Assembly (NCBI GenBank): GCA_029856155.1
Contig: JAHQWL010000016.1
Span: 1-10,115 of the forward strand
Reading direction: 5' to 3'
Length of the DNA: 10,115 nucleotides
Origin: Promethearchaeia archaeon
GTDB lineage: Archaea; Asgardarchaeota; Lokiarchaeia; Sigyniarchaeales; SOKP01
The notes under the pieces were generated by a model that worked only from the letters and a program-made list of their open reading frames with translations, made no database searches and was not told the origin of the DNA. This document shows, one piece after another, positions 948-10,115 of this stretch. Position 1 is the first letter of the stretch; each line of letters starts with the position of its first letter. Position numbers and translations under genes: made by a program.

Positions 948-1130
948 TTCATTCCTGAGAATTAATTTCGCAGCATATTCTCCAGATTTATAAACACTAT
1001 TAACCATTGCTCCAGGAAACGTCCATTGTCCTGCTTGATAAAGTCCTTTTATAAATTTTACTTTTTGTTTCCATTGTTTCATCTCATCCCAACCCAAACT
1101 TGCCCCTTTTTGGTTTAATGTATAACGATG
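939..1130 (-). pseudogene. C-terminal remnant of a phytoene desaturase-like FAD-dependent oxidoreductase (COG1233 type)
   Basis: Hand translation: HRYTLNQKGASLGWDEMKQWKQKVKFIKGLYQAGQWTFPGAMVNSVYKSGEYAAKLILRNELK*. It matches the RYTxNxxGAxxGW ... GLYxAGxWTxPGxG...SG..AA signature. An in-frame TGA at 1152-1154 lies upstream and the N-terminal part is missing. Confidence 0.85.
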
Positions 1131-1425
1131 ATTATTCTTTAAATATTCATATCAAATATATGATTCGAAATTTAAATTGTAATTTAATGAAGCCTATTAT
1201 CAATTTTTTTTCTATTCAGTTCATAAAGAGGAATTCGTTTACAGTATTTTTTAATTTTTGACCAATTACTCCATTATCTTTTTATTTCTTAAAAACTGTA
1301 AAATTCTGAAGGTAAAATATTAATAGATTAACTAAAAATTCAAATTGGGATATTTTATCAATTATTATTTTAGTTTCTAAGAATCTCAATTTAAATAATA
1401 TAAGTAACAGTATATCTTACATTGC

Positions 1426-3426
1426 TCATCTATCATGATCTGCGGGACAATTGTCCAGACTCCAGTAAATTAATGGTACATCAGCTAGAAAACACCCTTT
1501 CAGTAATTTTGGCAACAAAAAAAGAATGGAATCGAATGTGGGCCCCCTTACTTTAATTCTATAAGGATATTGTCCCCCATCGCTTACCACATGAAAACAT
1601 AGCTCTCCTCTAGCACTTTCGACAAAAGATATTGCTTCTCCTTTTTGAATTTGATCCATGGGGCTAAATTCCACTTTAATAGGACCACCAGGTAACTTAT
1701 TCATACTTTCTTCTATTAAATTTAAGCTTTTTTCGATTTCTAGTCGTCTTACAAAAACTCTATGGTATACATCTCCATCGTTAAATATTGGCACATCGAA
1801 ATGAAGTTTGTCGTAGGCTGCATATGGAGTTGCTTTTCTCACATCAAATTTTACACCTGATGCCCTAATGTTGGGACCAGTAATATCAGATTCTATTGCA
1901 ATATCACGAGATATTTCCCCTAAATTGATAGCTCTTTTTCTGAAAACTAAATTATCCATAAAGAGGTCATCAAGAATTTTAAGTCTATTTTTTATATATG
2001 ATATTACATTCGGAGCATTTTTTTTAAATTCATCTGAGACATCACACCTCACCCCTCCTGGAATATTATATATTTGATAAATACGACCTCCACATAACGC
2101 CTCAAGGAGGAAAAGTATTTTTTCTCTATCCCCCCATACAAGCCTCGCTACTGTATCAAATCCACTACTATAAGCAACGAGCCCTAAATTAATTAAATGA
2201 CTTTGAATCCTTGATAATTCTGCCTGAATTACTCGTAGATACTTTGCTCTATCTGGAATTTCAAGTTCTAATAATTTCTCTAAGGCATTAACATATCCTA
2301 TTTCATATGATGCTCCATCTAACACACAAATACGTGATATAAGCATTATGTTTTGATACCACGTTCTATATTCAAAGAGTTTTTCAAGTCCTCTGTGGAG
2401 ATACCCCACAATACATACAGCATTGTATATTGTTTCTCCCTTAATATTTAATCTTAGCGAAAAATTACCTGATGCTGGATGTTGAGGGCCAAATGAAAGT
2501 ATCCTCTCATCGGTTCTAACTTTCTTTATGATTGGTTCTACTTTTAAATCATCTGTATTTCTATATTGAATCTTCTTCTTCGTTCTAACTTTTATTTCCC
2601 TCGGCTTATATCCACCTTCGATAGCTAGTATTGCATGGTAGGCAGCAACACCTATTGATTCTGGTCTAGTCGGACATCCAGCGATCCATATATCCACAGG
2701 GATATAATCATCAATCTTTTTTATGGTATTGTAACTATCCCAATATGTTCCTCCTGTCATAGGACAGTTTCCAAGAACCAACACAAATTTAGGTTGAGGC
2801 ATCGCTTTATATATACTAATTATCCTCTTTAATGTTTTATAAGTCACATAGCCCCCTATAAGAAGTACATCCGAATGTAACGGGCTTCCTTTTACAATCA
2901 TCCCAAATCTTTCCATATCAAATCCACTACCAACCCATGGTATTGCTTCTATGAAACAGCATCCAACAAAATAATTTGTTATCCATAAGCTCCTTGAACG
3001 CGCCCAACTTACAATACTTTTCCTCTTTGGTTTTTTAGGATGTTGTAACACTGGTTGTTGAGCCAACATTTCAGGTGTGAAAATTAAATCTTTTTTATTT
3101 GTCGAAATCATTATGGAAAAATTTGTTGTATCAAGAGCTTTTGTAGGACATAAATCGAGACATAGCCCGCAAAAACAACACTTTGAATAATCAATACTTG
3201 GATAATAGACAATTCTTCCATCTTTTTGTCGTTCTACCATATTAATCGCTTTATTAGGACAGATTCTAAAACAAATCCCACAAGATGTACATTTTTCTGG
3301 ATGAAAGATATGCCGTCCCCTAAATTTCTTTGAGATTGGTGACTCTGGAGGAAATTTGAATGTAATCGGTTTTTTTATAAATAGTTTTATCCCTGTTTTC
3401 AATATATTAAATGCTCTCTTAATCAT
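1426..3426 (-). CDS. Fused NuoI-NuoB-NuoD (MbxN-MbxJ-MbxL-like) peripheral arm of a complex I-like / MBS-like oxidoreductase
   Basis: aa 1-~125 form a NuoI-type 2x[4Fe-4S] domain (FRGRH, CTSCGICFRICP, CCFCGLCLDLCP). aa ~137-270 are NuoB-type (SWARSRSLW, GCCFIE, DMERFG, GNCPMTGG, VDIWIAGCPTRPE). aa ~305-666 are NuoD/large-subunit type (FGPQHP, GYLHRGLEK, RICVLD, ELSRIQSHL, GPNIRASG, VESARGE, PYRIKVRGP, SLDNCPADHDR). The frame is continuous and the start overlaps the nuoC stop (ATGA). Confidence 0.95.
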   Translation of the reverse strand: MIKRAFNILKTGIKLFIKKPITFKFPPESPISKKFRGRHIFHPEKCTSCGICFRICPNKAINMVERQKDGRIVYYPSIDYSKCCFCGLCLDLCPTKALDTTNFSIMISTNKKDLIFTPEMLAQQPVLQHPKKPKRKSIVSWARSRSLWITNYFVGCCFIEAIPWVGSGFDMERFGMIVKGSPLHSDVLLIGGYVTYKTLKRIISIYKAMPQPKFVLVLGNCPMTGGTYWDSYNTIKKIDDYIPVDIWIAGCPTRPESIGVAAYHAILAIEGGYKPREIKVRTKKKIQYRNTDDLKVEPIIKKVRTDERILSFGPQHPASGNFSLRLNIKGETIYNAVCIVGYLHRGLEKLFEYRTWYQNIMLISRICVLDGASYEIGYVNALEKLLELEIPDRAKYLRVIQAELSRIQSHLINLGLVAYSSGFDTVARLVWGDREKILFLLEALCGGRIYQIYNIPGGVRCDVSDEFKKNAPNVISYIKNRLKILDDLFMDNLVFRKRAINLGEISRDIAIESDITGPNIRASGVKFDVRKATPYAAYDKLHFDVPIFNDGDVYHRVFVRRLEIEKSLNLIEESMNKLPGGPIKVEFSPMDQIQKGEAISFVESARGELCFHVVSDGGQYPYRIKVRGPTFDSILFLLPKLLKGCFLADVPLIYWSLDNCPADHDR

Positions 3427-3917
3427 TTTCCATCATCTCTTTTAAACTCTGGCATCATTATGTTGAAATTCCTTTTGACATATTTCCTCCAATCAAAATC
3501 CTTTCTAAAGGGAGGTGGACCTATCCAATTTTCTAAGAACAATGGTTTTAACATTTTATTACCCTCAAAGATAATACCGAACATTTCCCATACCTCTCTT
3601 TCGTGCAACGCAGCATTCGGCCATAACTTGGATAAGCTTTCAATTTTTACATTCTTTCTTCGTGGAATACGTGTGGAAACTTTAATATAGATATTCTTGT
3701 TCATAATATGTAAGATAAAAAATATCTCAAATGAATCATCTTTTATCCAGTCCACCGCACTTAAAGTTAATAATCTTCGGAACCCATGGTCTTTGAGGTA
3801 TTTTGCGATATTGAGATAATCCTTTTTCCTAATTTTAAAAAAAAAGATATTTTTATCTTCCATATATTCTAATGAATCCTCTTTAAGTTGTTTTAAAAAA
3901 CTAATTCCTTCAGACAT
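3423..3917 (-). CDS. nuoC: Complex I 30 kDa subunit (NuoC / MbxK-like)
   Basis: Motifs TLSAVDW, LWPNAALHEREVWEMFGIIFEGN and PPFRKDF. A GAGGTG Shine-Dalgarno sequence lies upstream of the ATG. Confidence 0.93.
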   Translation of the reverse strand: MSEGISFLKQLKEDSLEYMEDKNIFFFKIRKKDYLNIAKYLKDHGFRRLLTLSAVDWIKDDSFEIFFILHIMNKNIYIKVSTRIPRRKNVKIESLSKLWPNAALHEREVWEMFGIIFEGNKMLKPLFLENWIGPPPFRKDFDWRKYVKRNFNIMMPEFKRDDGK

Positions 3918-3931
3918 ATAAAATTAACACC

Positions 3932-5440
3932 TCAACTATAAACAGATAAGAAAGAATCTACACATTTACAAATAATACCCCAAATGAATAACGACATAAT
4001 GGATACTAGTAGCATTATAATGAAAAGTGTTACCTCGGACGCTAATATCGTATTGTTTTTTTCTAAGGCATTATGAACTTCTTCTGAAATCTGATTTTCG
4101 GGAACAATGACTATGTTTTTTACTAAAACACCATAATAATAGCCTATAGAAATCACAGTGTTCACTACGATTATAATTGCGAGCATAATCCCCATCCAAC
4201 CAACTTGTTGTGATGATCCAATTGCAGCTTCTATCAGAAATAGCTTACTCCAAAACATAGCTAATGGTGGAAATGCTGCTAAGTAAAATGCGCTTAGGGC
4301 AAATATCATCCCTGCAACTTTCATTTTAGTTCCGATCCCCATCAACTTCTTTATTTCCCTTGTTTTCCCCTCTTTTATAAATGATCCCGCACAAATAAAC
4401 ATGGTCGCCTTTGATATTCCATGATTTAGAATATGAAATATTGTTGCTGCTAGTGCGAAAGGAGTACCTATCGCTATACCTACCATCATCAAACCTATAT
4501 TATAGACACTGGAATAGGCTAGCATTCTTTTTATATCTTCTTGTACTAGTGCAGTTAAATTTGGAATTGTTATAGTTAACGCAGATATTATAAGCAAAAA
4601 GATTACCATTATATTGTCAAAAGATAATAAAATCTCGTTATAAAAGATAGAGACTAATACTTTTATTAATGCGAACATTTCTATTTCAATAACAATTCCC
4701 GAAAGCATTGCACTTACTCCAGATGGAGCTGCTGAATGTGCGTCCGGCAACCATGTGTGGAGTGGAAAGATTGCTGCCTTCACACCAAATCCAAGTACGA
4801 ACATGATAAAAAGGAAATAATAAATGGTAAGGGGTTGATCATTTAATGCACTATTTAATTCTGTCAAATTAGTAGTGCCTGCGATGATGTAGACAAATGA
4901 TAGTGCAAACAACACTAAAGCAGCACCAATTGAGCCCATTATGATATACTTAAATGACGATTCAATAGATTCCTTATTTCTGTAAAAAGCAACTAGAATA
5001 TAAGCGGTAATTGCGAGAAATTCAGTAAACACAAAAAGGGTTATAAGATCACCCGAATATGCTACACCATTTAGTGCCGATATCATTAACAAAAGCAGAA
5101 AATAATATTCTGTTATTCGTTTTTCCTCTAAATAACCAATACTGTAAAGAGATATTATCGTCCCTAGAATGGAGGAAAAAAGTGATATTAATGCAGAAAG
5201 ACCATCAATTGCAATAATCGTTCCTCCAGTATGAAAATCGAGAAGAATTGGAGTAGTCAATGACTCAATAAGATTGCATAAGGAAAAGAACACAACTAGA
5301 AATAAACCACCTGTGCTGATAGCTCCTAATATTGCTTTATTTTCCCGACACTTTCCGGTTATTAAAACTATAATAGCTGTAATTAGTGGTATAATTATGG
5401 GAAATAGATACTTACTTATTAAAAATACTAATTCTGACAT
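3932..5440 (-). CDS. Antiporter-like proton-translocating subunit (MrpD/MbhH / NuoM-N family)
   Basis: 502 aa, highly hydrophobic. Motifs GDLITLFVFTE (TM5 Glu140), ESSFKY, GVKAAIFPLHTWLPDAH (TM7 Lys221), DIKRMLAYSS, FHILNHGISK and PPLAMFWSK (TM12 Lys399). It mixes M-like and N-like motifs, as MrpD/MbhH does. Confidence 0.92.
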   Translation of the reverse strand: MSELVFLISKYLFPIIIPLITAIIVLITGKCRENKAILGAISTGGLFLVVFFSLCNLIESLTTPILLDFHTGGTIIAIDGLSALISLFSSILGTIISLYSIGYLEEKRITEYYFLLLLMISALNGVAYSGDLITLFVFTEFLAITAYILVAFYRNKESIESSFKYIIMGSIGAALVLFALSFVYIIAGTTNLTELNSALNDQPLTIYYFLFIMFVLGFGVKAAIFPLHTWLPDAHSAAPSGVSAMLSGIVIEIEMFALIKVLVSIFYNEILLSFDNIMVIFLLIISALTITIPNLTALVQEDIKRMLAYSSVYNIGLMMVGIAIGTPFALAATIFHILNHGISKATMFICAGSFIKEGKTREIKKLMGIGTKMKVAGMIFALSAFYLAAFPPLAMFWSKLFLIEAAIGSSQQVGWMGIMLAIIIVVNTVISIGYYYGVLVKNIVIVPENQISEEVHNALEKNNTILASEVTLFIIMLLVSIMSLFIWGIICKCVDSFLSVYS

Positions 5441-5441
5441 A

Positions 5442-7526
5442 TTAACTCAGCTTCACCAACGCATATATAATAACAAGGGATAAAAATATACTGATAACAT
5501 AATAAAGCAAATTTAAATTTATCTTTCCAGTGTGGAATTTTCTTATATAATCACCACTCTTTCTAACACTATACGCAAGCCTGCAATAAAATTTATCAAT
5601 TGATTGATGAAAGTTTTTTGTGGCATTTCCTAATTTAGTAATCCTTTGGCCAATACCGTGATAAAGCTTATCAATTGATTGATGGAAGTTTTTTGTGGCA
5701 TTTCCTAATTTAAAAATCCCTTGGTAGAATGAATAATAAAGAGGATTAAAGATCACTCGCTTATTTAACAATTTATGTATATCCTTTATGAGATATTTTG
5801 ATGTTATAGCACGAGTAGAGATTTTTCTTGTGAAATAGAAAGGATAGGTTATTAATAAGCCCGTTATAAGTAATATAACAATTATATAAGTACCAATAGA
5901 CAACCATGTATTAGAAAGGAAATAAAATAGTTTATCAAATGAGATCTCCAGTGGAATACTTCTAGATATAAAATTAATAATAGTAGGGTAAAAAAAGATT
6001 AATCCAAAAGATAAAGTGGCTAAAATAATTAGAGGAACTGTCATTATGGAGGTAGGCTTGTGTATTTTTTCCATTGTCTCGATTTTTTTAATTTTCTCAC
6101 TCTCGGTCCCAAAAAATATAAGCCCAATCATTCTAAATATATATAGGTTAGTTAGGAGAAATGTCACGATAAATAGAATAGTAATCCATGCAGGGAGAAC
6201 AAATATTTCGTTAACTATAAGTTGAATGCTGAAATATCCCACCAATGGAGGGATTCCAACAATCGAAAATGCTCCTATCATCATTAAGATATAAGTCTTT
6301 TTCATATATTTTCTAAGAGAGCCCATTTCATAGACATTTTTGATACCTGTTGAGTGTATTATTAAGCCAGAACTTAAAAAAAGAAGCGATTTAAATATGC
6401 TATGTGCGAGGATAAAAAGAACACCTGCAACAAATGCTGAATAATTAAGATAGAGACCTGCAACACCGAATATAAAGAATATGTATCCCAACTGATTTGA
6501 AGTCGAAAAAGCAAGAATTTTCTCTAGATCCCTCGCTACTATTCCATAAACACCAGTCAATATAATAGTTATTAGTCCGCATATAATCGCAATTTCAAAT
6601 ATTAATGAGAGCTCAGAAGCAGCCGATAAAGAATATAAGTCATAATTTATTAAAAAGAGCCTGCCAAGTATATAAACACCTGCATTTATTGTAGTCGCGG
6701 AATGCATTAATGTGGAAGCAGTTATAGGCCCAACTGTCGACTCAGGAAGCCAATCATGAAATGGGAACTGAGCACTTATTGCGAGAGAACTTGAAATTAT
6801 CAATATTGAAAATAGAGGAAGGATTCCAGCATTTAAAAGTTTAGTTACCCAACAATTATCTTTACTAAGAGTCAAAAAATTTAAAGTAGGATGACCAAAA
6901 GAATTCATAGTAGCGAATTCGAGTAAAATAATTGCAACCTCCATAAAGCAACCAGCGATAAGTATAGTTATTAGTGCCTTAGTTCCACAGTGTCTATTAT
7001 ATTTTCCATCAGTATCAAAACTAGGAACCGGACTTGGGTTTGTTTTTTTATACCAGAATGAGATTAGTCCCCAATTACAAAGACTGACCATTAGAAATGC
7101 TAATAGCATTTCAATAAAATTATTCGATAATACCAAAAGAAACATAGAACCTAATGAGAAATTCATCCAGAACCAATATCGCCCTAAATCGATTTCTTCA
7201 CGCATGTATCCCAAGCTATAGACAAAAATCAAAATTGAAATAAATGCGATAATAATTATTATAAATACACTAAACTCATCAATTAATATACCAAATTCTA
7301 CATAAGCTACTCCAAAACCGTAAAATAAATTGAATGTGTCTTGGTGGGGGAGAGATAGTGGAAATGAGATCATATCATATAAAATTTTTAAAGATAAAAG
7401 AAAACACATAATTGAAATACCTAACGAAAAATATCCGGCGTATGACTTATTCCTCTTCGCAATCCCATATGCTATAAAGGAACCAATTAATGGAATTAAC
7501 CATATAGCCCAAACTTCTATATATAT
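5442..7526 (-). CDS. nuoL: NuoL/MrpA-family antiporter-like subunit with degenerate pumping residues and an extended lateral helix; start probably ATA at 7526 (the track calls ATG at 7409)
   Basis: Motifs FVYSLGYM, SAQFPFHDWLP, MHSAT, KILAFST..QLG, HSIFKSLLFL, GIPPLVGYFS and FHTG followed by a terminal TM helix. The frame stays open upstream of 7409 to 7529 and reads IYIEVWAIWLIPLIGSFIAYGIAKRNKSYAGYFSLGISI, a typical NuoL TM1 plus start of TM2. The family is secure; the exact start is less so. Confidence 0.88.
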   Translation of the reverse strand: MYIEVWAIWLIPLIGSFIAYGIAKRNKSYAGYFSLGISIMCFLLSLKILYDMISFPLSLPHQDTFNLFYGFGVAYVEFGILIDEFSVFIIIIIAFISILIFVYSLGYMREEIDLGRYWFWMNFSLGSMFLLVLSNNFIEMLLAFLMVSLCNWGLISFWYKKTNPSPVPSFDTDGKYNRHCGTKALITILIAGCFMEVAIILLEFATMNSFGHPTLNFLTLSKDNCWVTKLLNAGILPLFSILIISSSLAISAQFPFHDWLPESTVGPITASTLMHSATTINAGVYILGRLFLINYDLYSLSAASELSLIFEIAIICGLITIILTGVYGIVARDLEKILAFSTSNQLGYIFFIFGVAGLYLNYSAFVAGVLFILAHSIFKSLLFLSSGLIIHSTGIKNVYEMGSLRKYMKKTYILMMIGAFSIVGIPPLVGYFSIQLIVNEIFVLPAWITILFIVTFLLTNLYIFRMIGLIFFGTESEKIKKIETMEKIHKPTSIMTVPLIILATLSFGLIFFYPTIINFISRSIPLEISFDKLFYFLSNTWLSIGTYIIVILLITGLLITYPFYFTRKISTRAITSKYLIKDIHKLLNKRVIFNPLYYSFYQGIFKLGNATKNFHQSIDKLYHGIGQRITKLGNATKNFHQSIDKFYCRLAYSVRKSGDYIRKFHTGKINLNLLYYVISIFLSLVIIYALVKLS
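5586..5724. repeat. 75-bp-period tandem duplication inside nuoL (lateral helix)
   Basis: The 45-bp cores at 5593-5637 and 5668-5712 differ at one base, and the similarity extends into the flanks. Both encode KLGNATKNFHQSIDK. Confidence 0.97.
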
Positions 7527-7529
7527 CTC

Positions 7530-7856
7530 TTACCACCTAAGCTCACTAATTTTTTCAGCATCAAGTGTATTGAATTTTTCTTGCATCATATAAACAATAA
7601 TAAGAACAAACGCAGCAACAATTGCTGCTATTATTGTCGAGATCATAACGATTGTTACAACAAATGGATCTAAATTATTGCTTGCAAAATATACAGAAAA
7701 AAAGACTAGAAATGCATTTGCAGTGTTTATTAAAATCTCCACGCCTATTATTATCTTGATTACATTTTTACTAGTAGCAGCTATTACCAAGCTTATGAAA
7801 AATTCTGTCAATATTAAAAAAAATGTAAGTATTATTATATCAATCATTTTTATCAC
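7530..7856 (-). CDS. nuoK: NuoK/MrpC-family small membrane subunit
   Basis: Three hydrophobic segments, KNVIKIIIGVEILIN (conserved Glu), an MrpC-like LDP before TM3 and a C-terminal TLDAEKISELRW. The start is either GTG at 7856 (overlapping the upstream stop) or ATG at 7847, which follows AAGTGA-taaaa. Confidence 0.88.
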   Translation of the reverse strand: MIKMIDIIILTFFLILTEFFISLVIAATSKNVIKIIIGVEILINTANAFLVFFSVYFASNNLDPFVVTIVMISTIIAAIVAAFVLIIVYMMQEKFNTLDAEKISELRW

Positions 7857-8107
7857 TTCCCACCATTGGATCTCCTAATTTGTGTCGAAATACCTGCATA
7901 TACGCTGAGTAAAATAAAAGCTATTATGATCATCTCGAGCCCCCTATATTCCCAGATAAATTTTCCTATTAATGTATCAAATGCTTTATCATCCTCACCT
8001 TTTAAAATATCACTTGTGTTTTCTACATAATTGCTTTGAATATTCTCAAATTCAATGGCATAAGAAACAATAATTGTTACCATTAAGAACAATAACACAC
8101 ATGACAA
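7853..8107 (-). CDS. NuoJ C-terminal half (J2 / MbhE-like) small membrane subunit
   Basis: Two hydrophobic segments, the motif IGKFIWEYRGLEMIIIAFILL, and its position between J1 and K. The track start is TTG; the frame is open upstream to ATA codons at 8125/8128 behind GGAGG. Confidence 0.75.
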   Translation of the reverse strand: MSCVLLFLMVTIIVSYAIEFENIQSNYVENTSDILKGEDDKAFDTLIGKFIWEYRGLEMIIIAFILLSVYAGISTQIRRSNGGK

Positions 8108-8111
8108 TAAT

Positions 8112-8366
8112 TTACTCTTCTTTATTATCTTCCCCTCCTATTAAACATACTATATAAAAAAATAGAGTCGCCATCGAAGCAGAGTATAGCGTTATCTGAA
8201 ATATGCCCAAGAGAGTATAACCCAAAAAAATATAAATTATTCCTATTAAGATATTGAATACTGTAAAAAAAATAGCAGCGTACATTAATTTCTCTACAAA
8301 ATAGATTATTAATGTGATTAATATTACTAAAATAAATAATGACAGAGGAATAATAAGAATATTCAT
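8112..8366 (-). CDS. NuoJ N-terminal half (J1 / MbhD-like)
   Basis: Three TM segments. LGYTLLGIFQITLYSASMATLFFYIV matches the NuoJ TM3 pattern Q..VYAGA..VLF. The SD GGAGTGA lies 6 nt before the ATG. Confidence 0.82.
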   Translation of the reverse strand: MNILIIPLSLFILVILITLIIYFVEKLMYAAIFFTVFNILIGIIYIFLGYTLLGIFQITLYSASMATLFFYIVCLIGGEDNKEE

Positions 8367-8372
8367 ATTGAA

Positions 8373-9347
8373 TCACTCCAAACCAAATATAATGATTGTA
8401 ATTAAATTAAACATTGCCAATGGAATAATTACTTTCCAGAAATAGTTAATTACTTGATCAATGCGATATCTTGCAGTAATGCTCCTTATCATTGTTATTA
8501 TAAAGACAATTAATGATGTCTTGAGAAAGAACATTATAAAATTTAAAGTCTGATTAAGAAATAATAACTCAGGATAGTTAAAATAAGGGAATGTTGGACC
8601 ACCTAGGAAAAGGATGGCTCCAAGAGATGCCACAAAATACATATTAAGATCCGAAGAAAGTCTGAATAAGGCTAATGTTCTCCCACTGATTTCTGTTGAC
8701 CATCCTGCTACGATTTCTGACTCAGCATTTGGAGAATCAAATGGGACTTTTTCTATTTTTGCTATGCTACTAAATATATATGCAATAAAACTTAAAGGCA
8801 TGAATGATATAAGGGGAATACCCGATGATTGAAATAACAAACTTTCTTTTATAGTAAAAGATTTGGATATGGCAATAATAGTTGCTATTGATATTCCGAA
8901 AGGAATTTCGAAGGAAATTATCATCTCTGCCTTTCTTGCTGCACCTTCATTTGAATATAGGCAAGCAACAGAATAACCAGTTATTATAATTAAAAGATCT
9001 ATAAACACACCGATCCCGAATAATAAAACTAAATCACCACTAAACGAAAGTGGTGCATTAAAATCATAAATTGGAATAAAAAGTAGTATAAAAAACATTA
9101 GTGCGACTGATGATATTGCAGAGAATGTTATCAAAAAAGTATTACTTACTTTTGGAAATATACTCTCCTTGTTTAATAATTTAATAAAGTCCGCCAAGGG
9201 TTGCATTATTCCTTTGAAACCGGTCATTTGAGGCCCTATTCTATTTTGAAAACGTGCATATACCTTCCTATCAAACCACTCATAAAAAAGGGAGAATATA
9301 AACGATAGAAGAACCCATATCAATATCATAGCGATTTTAATCATCAT
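8373..9347 (-). CDS. nuoH: Complex I subunit 1 family (NuoH / MbxM-like)
   Basis: Motifs DRKVYARFQNRIGP, QPLADFIKLLNKE, ISFEIP, PFDSPNAESEIVAGW and RYRIDQ. Confidence 0.95.
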   Translation of the reverse strand: MMIKIAMILIWVLLSFIFSLFYEWFDRKVYARFQNRIGPQMTGFKGIMQPLADFIKLLNKESIFPKVSNTFLITFSAISSVALMFFILLFIPIYDFNAPLSFSGDLVLLFGIGVFIDLLIIITGYSVACLYSNEGAARKAEMIISFEIPFGISIATIIAISKSFTIKESLLFQSSGIPLISFMPLSFIAYIFSSIAKIEKVPFDSPNAESEIVAGWSTEISGRTLALFRLSSDLNMYFVASLGAILFLGGPTFPYFNYPELLFLNQTLNFIMFFLKTSLIVFIITMIRSITARYRIDQVINYFWKVIIPLAMFNLITIIIFGLE

Positions 9348-9648
9348 TCACTCTCTCTTTTTCCTTGGGAATAAAAAATAAAGAGAATGTGATCAAAATC
9401 AAGAAACTTAAAGTTATAATATTTAGTGAAAGAGAGGTAATTGCAACAAGAACTACTGCGGCATCAAATGCGATAAAAAGACTGGCATAATATATCCATG
9501 GGACTTGATATTTCACCTTATGTTCTATTAATCTTTCTCCACAATGATAGGTGTCACTATATCTTCGTTTTTTGCTTCCTAATAAATAAATTATAAATGC
9601 AACAAGGTATACGATAAGTAGTGATACTAGAAGTTCAATTATGATCAT
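9337..9648 (-). CDS. nuoA: NuoA-family membrane subunit
   Basis: Three TM segments, loop motif YHCGE (canonical FECG) and YYASLFIAFD. It is the first gene of the operon and overlaps the nuoH start. Confidence 0.85.
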   Translation of the reverse strand: MIIIELLVSLLIVYLVAFIIYLLGSKKRRYSDTYHCGERLIEHKVKYQVPWIYYASLFIAFDAAVVLVAITSLSLNIITLSFLILITFSLFFIPKEKERVNDD

Positions 9649-9656
9649 TTTTATTT

Positions 9657-9674
9657 AATGAATAATTATTCATT
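9657..9674. promoter_or_regulatory. Perfect 18-bp palindrome, candidate operator for the operon
   Basis: AATGAATAATTATTCATT is its own reverse complement and ends 8 nt upstream of the nuoA ATG. Confidence 0.55.
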
Positions 9675-9706
9675 TTTTTTTTTCAATTTTCATTATTACA
9701 AGTAAG

Positions 9707-9720
9707 TATAAAAATTTGTC
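9707..9720 (-). promoter_or_regulatory. Candidate archaeal BRE/TATA promoter
   Basis: The minus strand reads GACAAA-TTTTTATA about 60 nt upstream of nuoA. The AT-rich background weakens this call. Confidence 0.35.
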
Positions 9721-9791
9721 TTTTTTTTTTAATTACTTTAATATCAATCTCAATCAGATTTTCATTAATCATAAATTTCAATATTTTTTTT

Positions 9792-9953
9792 TTAAATTAT
9801 TTTAAAATCATTTTCAGTAATTTTCCTTGTACGCTGTACAAACCATGACCAAATTGTTGTTGTTGGGTATTTATCCTTAAAAACATCTAATTTTGCCCTA
9901 ATACTAGCATTAATGACAATTGGATTTTCAAAATTTATTTTAGTATCTTTAAG
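9792..9953 (-). pseudogene. C-terminal remnant of an EVE/PUA-like domain protein
   Basis: Reads LKDTKINFENPIVINASIRAKLDVFKDKYPTTTIWSWFVQRTRKITENDFKII*. The L..FK....W...Q....I.E.DF..I ending resembles EVE domains. It is preceded by an in-frame TAG (9954-9956) and has no ATG/GTG/TTG start. Confidence 0.6.
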
Positions 9954-10036
9954 CTATAACGATGATTTCACGAAGAATATTTCTAGAGAAAATTTTTATT
10001 TTATTGATAATGTTGACAAGGCATGGAATATCCATT

Positions 10037-10114
10037 TTACGCTACTTTTTCTTCCCCTTTTGAGTCTTTTACTATTGTATGGATAAGAAGAGGCTCCGAA
10101 CAAAAAGTGCAACG
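10037..10114 (-). CDS. 3' end of a gene running in from outside the window, with a CxxC motif (possible zinc ribbon)
   Basis: Reads ...RCTFCSEPLLIHTIVKDSKGEEKVA*. Only 25 codons are visible. Confidence 0.35.
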   Translation of the reverse strand, partial: RCTFCSEPLLIHTIVKDSKGEEKVA

Positions 10115-10115
10115 T

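Follow-up and report, generated by a model that had tools for sequence, protein, structure and literature searches.

Complex I is thought to have derived from membrane-bound hydrogenases via intermediates resembling the sulfane sulfur reductase MBS, a story that comes mostly from a few enzymes of the Thermococcales. Here, we describe a nine-gene cassette for a machine of this kind from a lokiarchaeial genome. The cassette occupies positions 1426–9648 of the window, i.e., the whole 10,115-bp contig JAHQWL010000016.1 (C16) of a Promethearchaeia metagenome-assembled genome (MAG) (GCA_029856155.1, hereafter G000; 4.1 Mb, 30% G+C, 97% complete, 5.7% contamination). With slightly better than even confidence, we read it as a mobile cassette encoding a mosaic ferredoxin-driven ion pump of the Ehr/MBS class, possessing one working pump and a two-cysteine head that was swapped in.

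The closest solved relative of the redox subunits of the cassette (I, B, C and D) is MBS of Pyrococcus furiosus, formerly Mbx (PDB 6U8Y; PMC7684303). Its catalysis depends on a site-differentiated proximal cluster with three Cys ligands only, and the two cysteines of its large subunit, MbsL, are dispensable in vitro (PMC7684303). The MBS-type gene order H-H'-M-J-K-L-N is also encountered in Thermotogae, Thermoplasmata and other loci (L011–L021) at about 40% identity; the MBS review PMC8165549 makes no mention of Thermotogae, Bathyarchaeota, Asgard, MBS homologs or Fpo. The second group of described relatives is the complex-I-like group 4 [NiFe] hydrogenases of Asgard archaea. Those of Freyarchaeia/Atabeyarchaeia comprise two antiporters and an L-like subunit with a full lateral (HL) helix (PMC11291895), and the groups 4j–4q of Heimdallarchaeia feature shortened arms (bioRxiv 10.1101/2024.07.04.601786). 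The name Ehr (Marreiros et al. 2013, as described in PMC6349859) covers relatives of group 4 hydrogenases which lack the conserved set of Ni-Fe ligands and possess antiporter-like subunits; for some of them, a link to formate dehydrogenase has been proposed (PMC6349859). That Asgards have shortened complex-I-like machines linked to ferredoxin is, as a general idea, already published, and the non-hydrogenase relatives are a named category. To our knowledge, MBS/Mbx is the one characterised example of the Ehr kind. Complex I devoid of the N-module is represented by the 11-subunit Nuo, Fpo and the cyanobacterial NDH-1, the latter accepting electrons from ferredoxin.

The span 1426–9648 is filled by nine open reading frames (ORFs), all on the minus strand, in the order A-H-J1-J2-K-L-second antiporter-C-[I-B-D] according to the ORF list, with junctions of 4–11 nt overlaps or 1–14 nt gaps. 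Gene families were called with Pfam and NCBIfam. The genes, the domains of the fused protein and two further features of the locus are located as follows (window coordinates; lengths in amino acids, aa).

9337..9648, minus strand: NuoA-like subunit, 103 aa (Pfam Oxidored_q4, 29.8 bits; cut-off 23.3)
8373..9347, minus strand: NuoH-like subunit at the junction of the redox arm and the membrane, 324 aa (Pfam NADHdh, 250 bits)
8112..8366, minus strand: J1, N-terminal half of a split NuoJ, 84 aa (Oxidored_q3, 29 bits, under the 33-bit cut-off)
7853..8107, minus strand: J2, presumed C-terminal half of NuoJ, 84 aa, TTG start (by position, size and a weak colinear match)
7530..7856, minus strand: NuoK-like subunit, 108 aa, GTG start (Pfam Oxidored_q2, 47 bits)
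5442..7520, minus strand: NuoL-like subunit with a C-terminal lateral helix, an anchor helix and a degenerate antiporter core, 692 aa (Proton_antipo_M)
5585..5741, minus strand: 75-nt tandem duplication within L, equal to the 25-aa unit of the lateral helix (Tandem Repeats Finder, period 75, 2.1 copies)
3932..5440, minus strand: second antiporter-like subunit of the MbhH/MbsH/MrpD type, 502 aa (Proton_antipo_M)
3423..3917, minus strand: NuoC/MbsK-like subunit, 164 aa (Pfam Complex1_30kDa, 108 bits)
1426..3426, minus strand: I-B-D fusion protein, 666 aa (Fer4 twice, Oxidored_q6, Complex1_49kDa)
3037..3426, minus strand: I domain, fusion residues 1–130, with two [4Fe-4S] clusters, the presumed site of ferredoxin docking and electron entry (motifs CTSCGICFRICP and CCFCGLCLDLCP)
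2572..3036, minus strand: B domain, fusion residues ~131–285, proximal [4Fe-4S] cluster with tandem CC (GCCFIE, GNCP, GCPTRPE)
1426..2526, minus strand: D domain, fusion residues ~301–666, MbsL type, CxxD/CxxD (RICVLD, DNCPADHDR)
1129..9975, minus strand: extent of the conserved cassette in common with the related genome G109 (blastn of the flanks against its copy, L003)

The first-pass annotation of this DNA had reported nine abutting or overlapping genes in this order, and every ORF was found at its claimed position on the minus strand. It had also noted the lack of an electron input module, of Mrp-type Na+ subunits and of maturation genes, together with the presence of two antiporter-like genes only. 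Indeed, the window harbors no NuoEFG, FpoF, Mrp E/F/G/B or hyp genes, there is no NuoF in G000 and G001 (no Complex1_51K match), and none of the missing modules was found elsewhere in the carrier genomes, i.e., G000 itself, G109 and G001. In the latter three genomes, no Proton_antipo_M gene exists besides the two of the cassette, and G000 as a whole contains no further NuoD, NuoB or NuoH paralogue. The survey of gene order which it had proposed recovered the same nine-gene order in G109 (locus L003) and G001 (locus L004).

In a comparison with all PDB chains, the redox parts of the cassette resemble MBS (6U8Y) most. The best match of the D domain is 6u8y_L (MbsL; 303 bits, end to end), followed by Nqo4 of Thermus thermophilus (239 bits); that of the B domain is 6u8y_J (MbsJ; 146 bits), then NdhK (122 bits); that of C is 6u8y_K (MbsK; 69 bits, runner-up 48), and the best NuoI-type match of the I domain is 6u8y_N (MbsN). 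The D domain keeps the first cysteine of each Ni-Fe motif, the second being replaced by aspartate (CVLD and CPAD), and its C-terminus reads SLDNCPADHDR. The fusion residues C367 and C660 align to C85 and C385 of MbsL, with which the C-terminal SLDNCPxDxDR is shared, and the protein terminates at DHDR, without a C-terminal maturation extension. In the 61 full-length members of the family, all FeS cysteines and D663 are invariant; C367, D370 and C660 are nearly so. AlphaFold2 predicts a compact fusion protein (pLDDT 85.9, pTM 0.91), the linker between B and D (residues 287–301) and a few short loops being of low confidence; the best fold match of the model is 6u8y_L (TM 0.90).

The phylogeny of the D domain gave a concordant picture. 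A search over 1.8 billion representative sequences recovered the entire fused family as a single cluster at 50% identity (487 bits), the next match scoring 306 bits. In the FastTree phylogeny of 192 sequences, rooted on CxxC/CxxC hydrogenases and with its classes labelled by active-site motif and best PDB match, the fused family is monophyletic (support 0.999). Its sister is an unfused two-Cys family with the motif RICxLD...DPCPADMDR (support 0.936), and the next branch (0.951) is a small MbsL-like clade including P0127, which matches MbsL with 363 bits. The D domain resides inside a two-Cys clade of 62 members (0.886), separate from the NuoD clade of 85 members (0.854) and from the NiFe clades. 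As a side observation, the group 4 NiFe large subunits P0242 and P0245 are ~937 aa long owing to an insert of ~550 residues between ERICGIC and the downstream conserved His; situated in the region of the N-terminal Ni-Fe Cys motif, it is probably an intein. The designation of the D domain as ordinary Nuo (“NADH-quinone oxidoreductase subunit D”) was also considered: the NCBIfam NuoD model scores 374.7, barely over its cut-off of 360, and neither the motifs nor the PDB ranking nor the tree bears it out.

The B domain is where the head departs from MBS. Its GCCFIE motif aligns with GCGGIE of MbsJ (C28-G29) on the one hand and with CCFIE of NdhK/NDUFS7 on the other; tandem CC is present in 53 of the 69 family members, and the MbsJ-like CG in the other 16. 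Judging by this motif, the B domain is without the signature of the MBS catalytic site and carries the tandem CC of the N2 type known from complex I instead.

The membrane arm displays a different set of affinities. The best PDB matches of H are NdhA/Nad1/Nqo8 (133–114 bits, vs. 91 for MbhM and 66 for MbsM), and those of L are NdhF/NuoL (154 bits, vs. 93 for MbhH). The second antiporter-like subunit scores higher with MbhH (176 bits), MbsH (168) and MrpD (155) than with NdhB (128) and NuoM (113), and it retains the Glu of transmembrane helix (TM) 5 and the Lys residues of TM7, TM11 and TM12. The A subunit has 32% identity to the A gene of locus L104, an NiFe-type relative in which it takes the equivalent position in the gene order. 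K retains the TM2 Glu (GVEIL) and, like its counterparts in the NiFe-type Asgard relatives, lacks the second Glu. J1 also matches the NCBIfam short-J model PRK06433 and aligns to residues 1–86 of an unsplit Asgard NuoJ (E 4e-4). J2 has no Pfam or NCBIfam family match (Pfam up to E 5 yields noise only) and shows in BLASTP a weak colinear match to residues 78–118 of the unsplit NuoJ (E 2.4, not significant). A gene of similar size stands at this position in L104, L108, L110 and L111, so by position, size and colinearity J2 would be the second half of NuoJ. Sequence similarity groups H, L, K, A and J1 with complex I, and the second antiporter with MbhH, MbsH and MrpD.

The H subunits related to that of the cassette form a clade of ~21 clusters at an identity of at least 70%, and the best relatives outside this clade have ~45% identity. 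The top match among the latter is L104, a two-antiporter complex of the NiFe type with the operon B-C-D-I-A-H-J1-J2-K-L-M (identity 45% for H, 42% for L and 41% for M). Its large subunit is of the true NiFe type (CGIC...DPCIAC, followed by a tail), and its small subunit has CxxC. By sequence, the membrane arm of the cassette thus finds its nearest kin outside the clade in a two-antiporter Asgard group 4 NiFe hydrogenase (arm order A-H-J1-J2-K-L-M), not in Nuo/Fpo proper.

These results refine the proposals of the first-pass annotation. Its MBS/Mbx-type redox arm holds, given the best PDB matches (6u8y L, J, K and N) and the position of D in the two-Cys clade near MbsL-like sequences; the motifs it quoted are present and align to MbsJ and MbsL. 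The D domain nests neither in NuoD/Fpo nor in a characterised clade with the same architecture, as far as the motif-labelled FastTree phylogeny is concerned. The Nuo/Fpo-type membrane arm stands for H, L, K, A and J1, and fails for the second antiporter, which is not of the NuoM/N kind, and for the nearest relative of the arm, which is L104. As to the suggested placement between MBS and complex I, the B domain of the MBS-like head bears the CC of complex I and not the three-Cys site that defines MBS catalysis. The branch is uncharacterised, as supposed, and at the same time it belongs under the published Ehr umbrella (PMC6349859) and has an unfused two-antiporter sister family. As to ion translocation, the proposal needs a correction: the pump residues of L are lost (see below), so that the complex probably has one working pump.

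A feature-by-feature comparison underlines the mosaic nature of the cassette. In common with MBS, it has a two-Cys large subunit, no quinone ligands, two antiporter-like subunits (one of them MbsH-like) and, likely, ferredoxin as the donor. Unlike MBS, it is accompanied by no Mrp-derived Na+ module (MbsA, B, C, F and others) in the window or the carrier genomes; its H, L, A and K are complex-I-like, the gene order is other than H-H'-M-J-K-L-N, I, B and D are fused, the proximal cluster has CC and not the C-G three-Cys arrangement, and L has a lateral helix and lost pump residues. With the Asgard NiFe complexes, the cassette shares the gene order of the arm (as in L104), two antiporters, the full HL helix, the absence of NuoEFG and the proposed ferredoxin donor. 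In contrast to the cassette, the NiFe loci L104 and L102 encode CGIC...DPCxxC with a tail and a small subunit with GGCNGCDIE (CxxC); the head of L104 precedes the arm and its L has intact pump residues, whereas the head of the cassette is a two-Cys module of C and I-B-D (hereafter C+IBD) placed after the membrane genes. Complex I without the N-module shares with the cassette the subunits A, H, J, K, L and C, the lateral helix and the tandem-Cys B; the split J is a further common trait, as in the NCBIfam short-J model. The differences from complex I/Fpo are two antiporters instead of three, a D outside NuoD and without the His/Tyr pair, the lack of FpoF/NuoEFG and the degenerate L.

The unfused sister family of the D domain occurs in Bathyarchaeia and other lineages and possesses a two-antiporter complex of its own in L108 (order J1-J2-K-L-M-A-B-C-D-I-x-H). 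It resembles the cassette in the number of antiporters, the split J and the two-Cys D; it differs in having unfused genes in another order, an L with the TM5/TM7/TM12 motifs kept and a D that is ~46–48% identical. Taken by its sequence features, the cassette is neither complex I/Fpo nor MBS proper nor a group 4 NiFe hydrogenase, though it has the tandem CC of complex I and the two-Cys large subunit of MBS. It does fall within the loose definition of Ehr in PMC6349859, Ehr being an umbrella term and not a defined clade. No Ehr with an I-B-D fusion, with a complex-I-type A-H-J-K-L arm bearing a lateral helix, or with a degenerate L turned up in the literature searched (the 2013 list of Ehr members lies outside this search). 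Likewise, no description of an I-B-D fusion, of the head-and-arm combination of the cassette or of the decay series of L was found in that literature; a survey with hidden Markov models lists CD and BCD fusions, with no IBD fusion and no Asgard (PMC12361115).

The complex I traits of the cassette could be taken at face value. In that case, the complex would be a ferredoxin:lipid-carrier oxidoreductase operating like Fpo without FpoF or like photosynthetic NDH-1, with the N2-type cluster reducing a quinone- or phenazine-like carrier that enters via H. The CC motif of the B domain, an H nearest to NdhA/Nad1/Nqo8, and the lateral helix and split J, which are complex-I/Fpo traits, speak for this possibility, and we consider it improbable in view of the D domain. 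In T. thermophilus Nqo4, H38 of the β1-β2 loop and Y87 are ligands of the quinone head group, and sequences of the NuoD clade carry GPQHPSTHG...DRxDY. When the D domain is aligned to 2fug_4, H38 falls into a one-residue gap (GPQHPAS-GNF vs. GPQHPSTHGV) and Y87 stands opposite the Val of RICVLD; hence, the equivalent of the former is deleted and that of the latter is Val. The D domain also clusters apart from NuoD, and the MqnA/D family had no match in the three carrier genomes, a search that did not extend to other quinone or phenazine pathways.

The L subunit is the most divergent part of the arm. Its pump positions, scored in an alignment with ten L-type subunits, compare as follows.

TM5 Glu: canonical GWE; FLM in the clade of the window (E to L)
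TM7 Lys: canonical GKSAQ; AISAQ in the clade of the window (K to I), Lys being retained in L004
TM8 Lys: canonical MVKAG; TINAG in the clade of the window (K to N)
TM12 Lys: canonical FSKD; FSIQ in the clade of the window (K to I)

All four charged residues are thus replaced in L of the window and of L003, and in L004 likewise except for the TM7 Lys. They are all present in L104, in L102 and in ordinary nuoL genes of Asgard/TACK archaea (L093–L098); the L of the sister family in L108 has the TM5, TM7 and TM12 motifs, and the TM8 pattern was not found in it. In relatives of the same clade with the cassette layout kept, L is shortened to 344 aa (L110:11818-12852, internal deletion of approximately residues 209–550), 181 aa (L111:7987-8532) and 155 aa (L103:8464-8931), and a Pfam scan of these three proteins gave no match (E up to 5, noise only). 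At the same time, the tail is present in all relatives, even where the core is deleted: it consists of a helix of 25-aa repeats (KxG...NFH..xD.xY) and a terminal transmembrane helix. The 25-aa unit occurs 2–4 times in relatives, with an extra copy in L111, so the length of the lateral helix seems to vary. Since the pump residues of L are lost and those of the second antiporter are kept, the complex probably has one working pump. By the same residues, L would be a scaffold or clamp that has lost pumping, leaving one canonical pump along with the H/A/J/K channel.

The L gene of the window has no ATG, GTG or TTG before position 7409, the frame being open back to the stop codon of K. Its start codon is ATA at 7520–7518; in L003, whose copy is 97% identical, ATG is found at the aligned position. 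In L004, L begins two codons upstream of the ATA of the window, and AGGTGG is situated just before the K stop codon. Translation of L may start from the near-cognate ATA codon or by re-initiation after K.

The cassette is patchily distributed. Full-length fusions were found in ~22 of the 301 genomes of the phylum, and public data contain ~70 fusion clusters. Among the 68 genomes of the window's own family, the fusion is present in one, G109, which represents another genus. The cassette lies there on a 50-kb contig (G109:C17), and in G001 on a 77-kb contig (G001:C75). The gene block 1426–9648 is 97% identical in nucleotides to that of G109 and 89% to that of G001, vs. only 66–70% for the ATPase genes of the carriers, and the cassette was found in none of the 21 congeneric genomes. 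For these reasons, either the cassette moves laterally among Lokiarchaeia or contig C16 was misbinned. The flanks match L003 only at 1129–1425 (94%) and 9649–9975 (96%) and differ beyond. The genes flanking the cassette also differ between carriers: in L003, L004, L005, L006 and L007, they are unrelated housekeeping or accessory genes, and no clue to the acceptor was seen among those of L003–L007. The flanks of the window itself (1–1425 and 9649–10115) are long and AT-rich, the left end having 23% G+C, with no ORF of at least 60 aa; scans of both returned no Rfam match, no tRNA and no clear repeats.

In L100, where the fusion is 75% identical, the same M-C-IBD end adjoins an A/V-ATPase operon. 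The head is found apart from the arm as well. In Heimdall, Bathyarchaeia and Hecatellales genomes, C+IBD forms a stand-alone two-gene unit; NuoH of the genomes with a free C+IBD belongs to ordinary nuoBCDHI..KLM(N) operons, which supply B, C, D and I themselves. In L099 (L099:5739-12007) and in Freyarchaeota L101 (L101:885-7032), C+IBD adjoins FlpD-FdhA-FdhB, which recalls the formate dehydrogenase link of some Ehr members. The neighbours of the membrane-less C+IBD in these two loci are an MvhD-like FlpD, a molybdopterin formate-dehydrogenase alpha subunit and an FrhB/FdhB-type beta subunit. Such neighbourhoods suggest a formate-linked soluble or docking complex.

This distribution brings another, rather unlikely possibility into view, namely that C+IBD is a portable redox unit, a cartridge whose chemistry is peculiar to it. 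Its CxxD/CxxD site, placed beside a four- or three-Cys cluster depending on the lineage, would then bind a metal or substrate other than Ni-Fe, quinone or the polysulfide of MBS. If so, Lokiarchaeia would have the cartridge plugged into a shortened complex-I arm that has one live pump, and other lineages (Asgard/TACK) into FlpD-FdhAB, the Loki cassette would be a new type of energy-conserving reductase, and the decay series of L would amount to a natural experiment in which the lateral helix is needed without its pump.

Somewhat less likely still is reverse operation, with a gradient made by the ATPase driving the reduction of ferredoxin from a weaker donor (a thiol, sulfide or FlpD/Fdh-type partners) for biosynthesis. 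The complexes of this superfamily are reversible in principle, a single working pump fits a small energy step, and the association of C+IBD with FlpD-FdhAB in other Asgards is in line with such a role, as are the many FlpD/MvhD and ferredoxin-domain genes of G000. The FlpD/MvhD paralogues of the latter are spread over at least 10 contigs, and no donor module is linked to the cassette itself; moreover, fermentative Lokiarchaeia are expected to experience a surplus of ferredoxin, not a deficit. Elsewhere in G000, distant FrhB/FdhB-like genes (23–29% identity) occur unlinked to the cassette, and at G000:C33:27901-34040 the large subunit of a group 3-type NiFe hydrogenase lies ~4 kb from the best FdhA homologue.

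We hold it for quite unlikely that the cassette is the leftover of an Asgard complex-I-like hydrogenase, decaying or no longer functional and heading for loss. All nine frames are open, and the ratio of nonsynonymous to synonymous substitution rates (dN/dS) relative to L004 is 0.14–0.38 across the nine genes, 0.34 for L, indicating purifying selection. The FeS and CxxD residues show little or no variation in 61 sequences, the ~21 clusters of the H clade and ~70 fusion clusters persist in public data, and the L tail is conserved even where the core is deleted. What would favor a remnant is the loss of the pump residues and the ATG start of L, the truncation of L in relatives, the patchy distribution and the comparatively high dN/dS of L relative to L003 (0.70). 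Finally, a proton-reducing group 4 [NiFe] hydrogenase like the published Asgard ones is scarcely credible: despite an arm homologous to that of a true NiFe complex and a weak Pfam NiFeSe_Hases match in the fusion (19 bits, under the cut-off), CxxD stands in place of both CxxC pairs, the sequence stops at DHDR without the maturation extension seen in L104 and L102, and the small-subunit motif is CC, not CxxC.

Returning to the mosaic ferredoxin-driven pump as the preferred reading, its operation can be tentatively outlined. Reduced ferredoxin would dock on the N-terminal I domain of the fusion, and electrons would pass through the two [4Fe-4S] clusters of the I domain and the proximal one of the B domain before reaching an acceptor in the chamber that the B domain, the MbsL-type D domain and subunit H enclose. 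The acceptor is presumably neither H+ nor a canonical quinone, since two of the four Ni-Fe cysteines as well as the quinone His/Tyr are missing from the D domain. By analogy with MBS, we would guess at sulfane sulfur/polysulfide or another disulfide-like oxidant as the likeliest acceptors. As known for the family, coupling would proceed by a relay via H, A, J1/J2 and K to the intact MbhH/MrpD-type antiporter, which would move H+ or Na+ outward for an A/V-type ATPase; the A/V-ATPase operon next to the 75%-identical copy was counted in favor of this link. The NuoL-like subunit would most likely serve as a scaffold only, with its C-terminal lateral helix and anchor clamping the arm. As for its origin, the complex may have arisen by a module swap, in which a free C+IBD took the place of the B-C-D-I hydrogenase head in a complex-I-like hydrogenase of Asgards with two antiporters.

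Several points count against this picture. The classes of the D tree carry labels derived from motifs and PDB matches and not from curated named references. Sulfane sulfur as the acceptor is weakened to no more than a leading guess, since the B domain has CC and not the three-Cys site of MBS, and only 16 of the 69 family members are MbsJ-like (CG) in this respect. J2 has no assignment based on its sequence, and L starts with ATA. The cassette was found in none of the 21 genomes examined from the same genus, and it is carried by a 10-kb contig of an MAG with 5.7% contamination; because of the small contig, the contamination and the absence from the congeners, the assignment of the cassette to G000 as the host, and with it the genome-wide absences in G000, could be wrong. 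As regards antiporter-like genes, the result is the same in G109 and G001, which carry the cassette on the longer contigs of 50 and 77 kb.

The cassette thus represents a natural chimera: its head is of the MBS type, while its cluster motif and its arm with the lateral helix are of the complex-I type. Its bearers are Asgard archaea, a group with an energy metabolism that matters for models of the origin of eukaryotes. The composition of the cassette suggests that the heads and arms of such machines have been exchanged as modules, with the whole cassette moving between genomes. The series of L subunits, from the full-length charge-less form through the internal deletion to the tail only, offers a ready-made test of the role of the distal antiporter and the lateral helix in coupling. 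Overall, the locus suggests that a few Lokiarchaeial lineages have a putative chemiosmotic electron sink that depends on ferredoxin and is not H2, which would change the models of their syntrophy.

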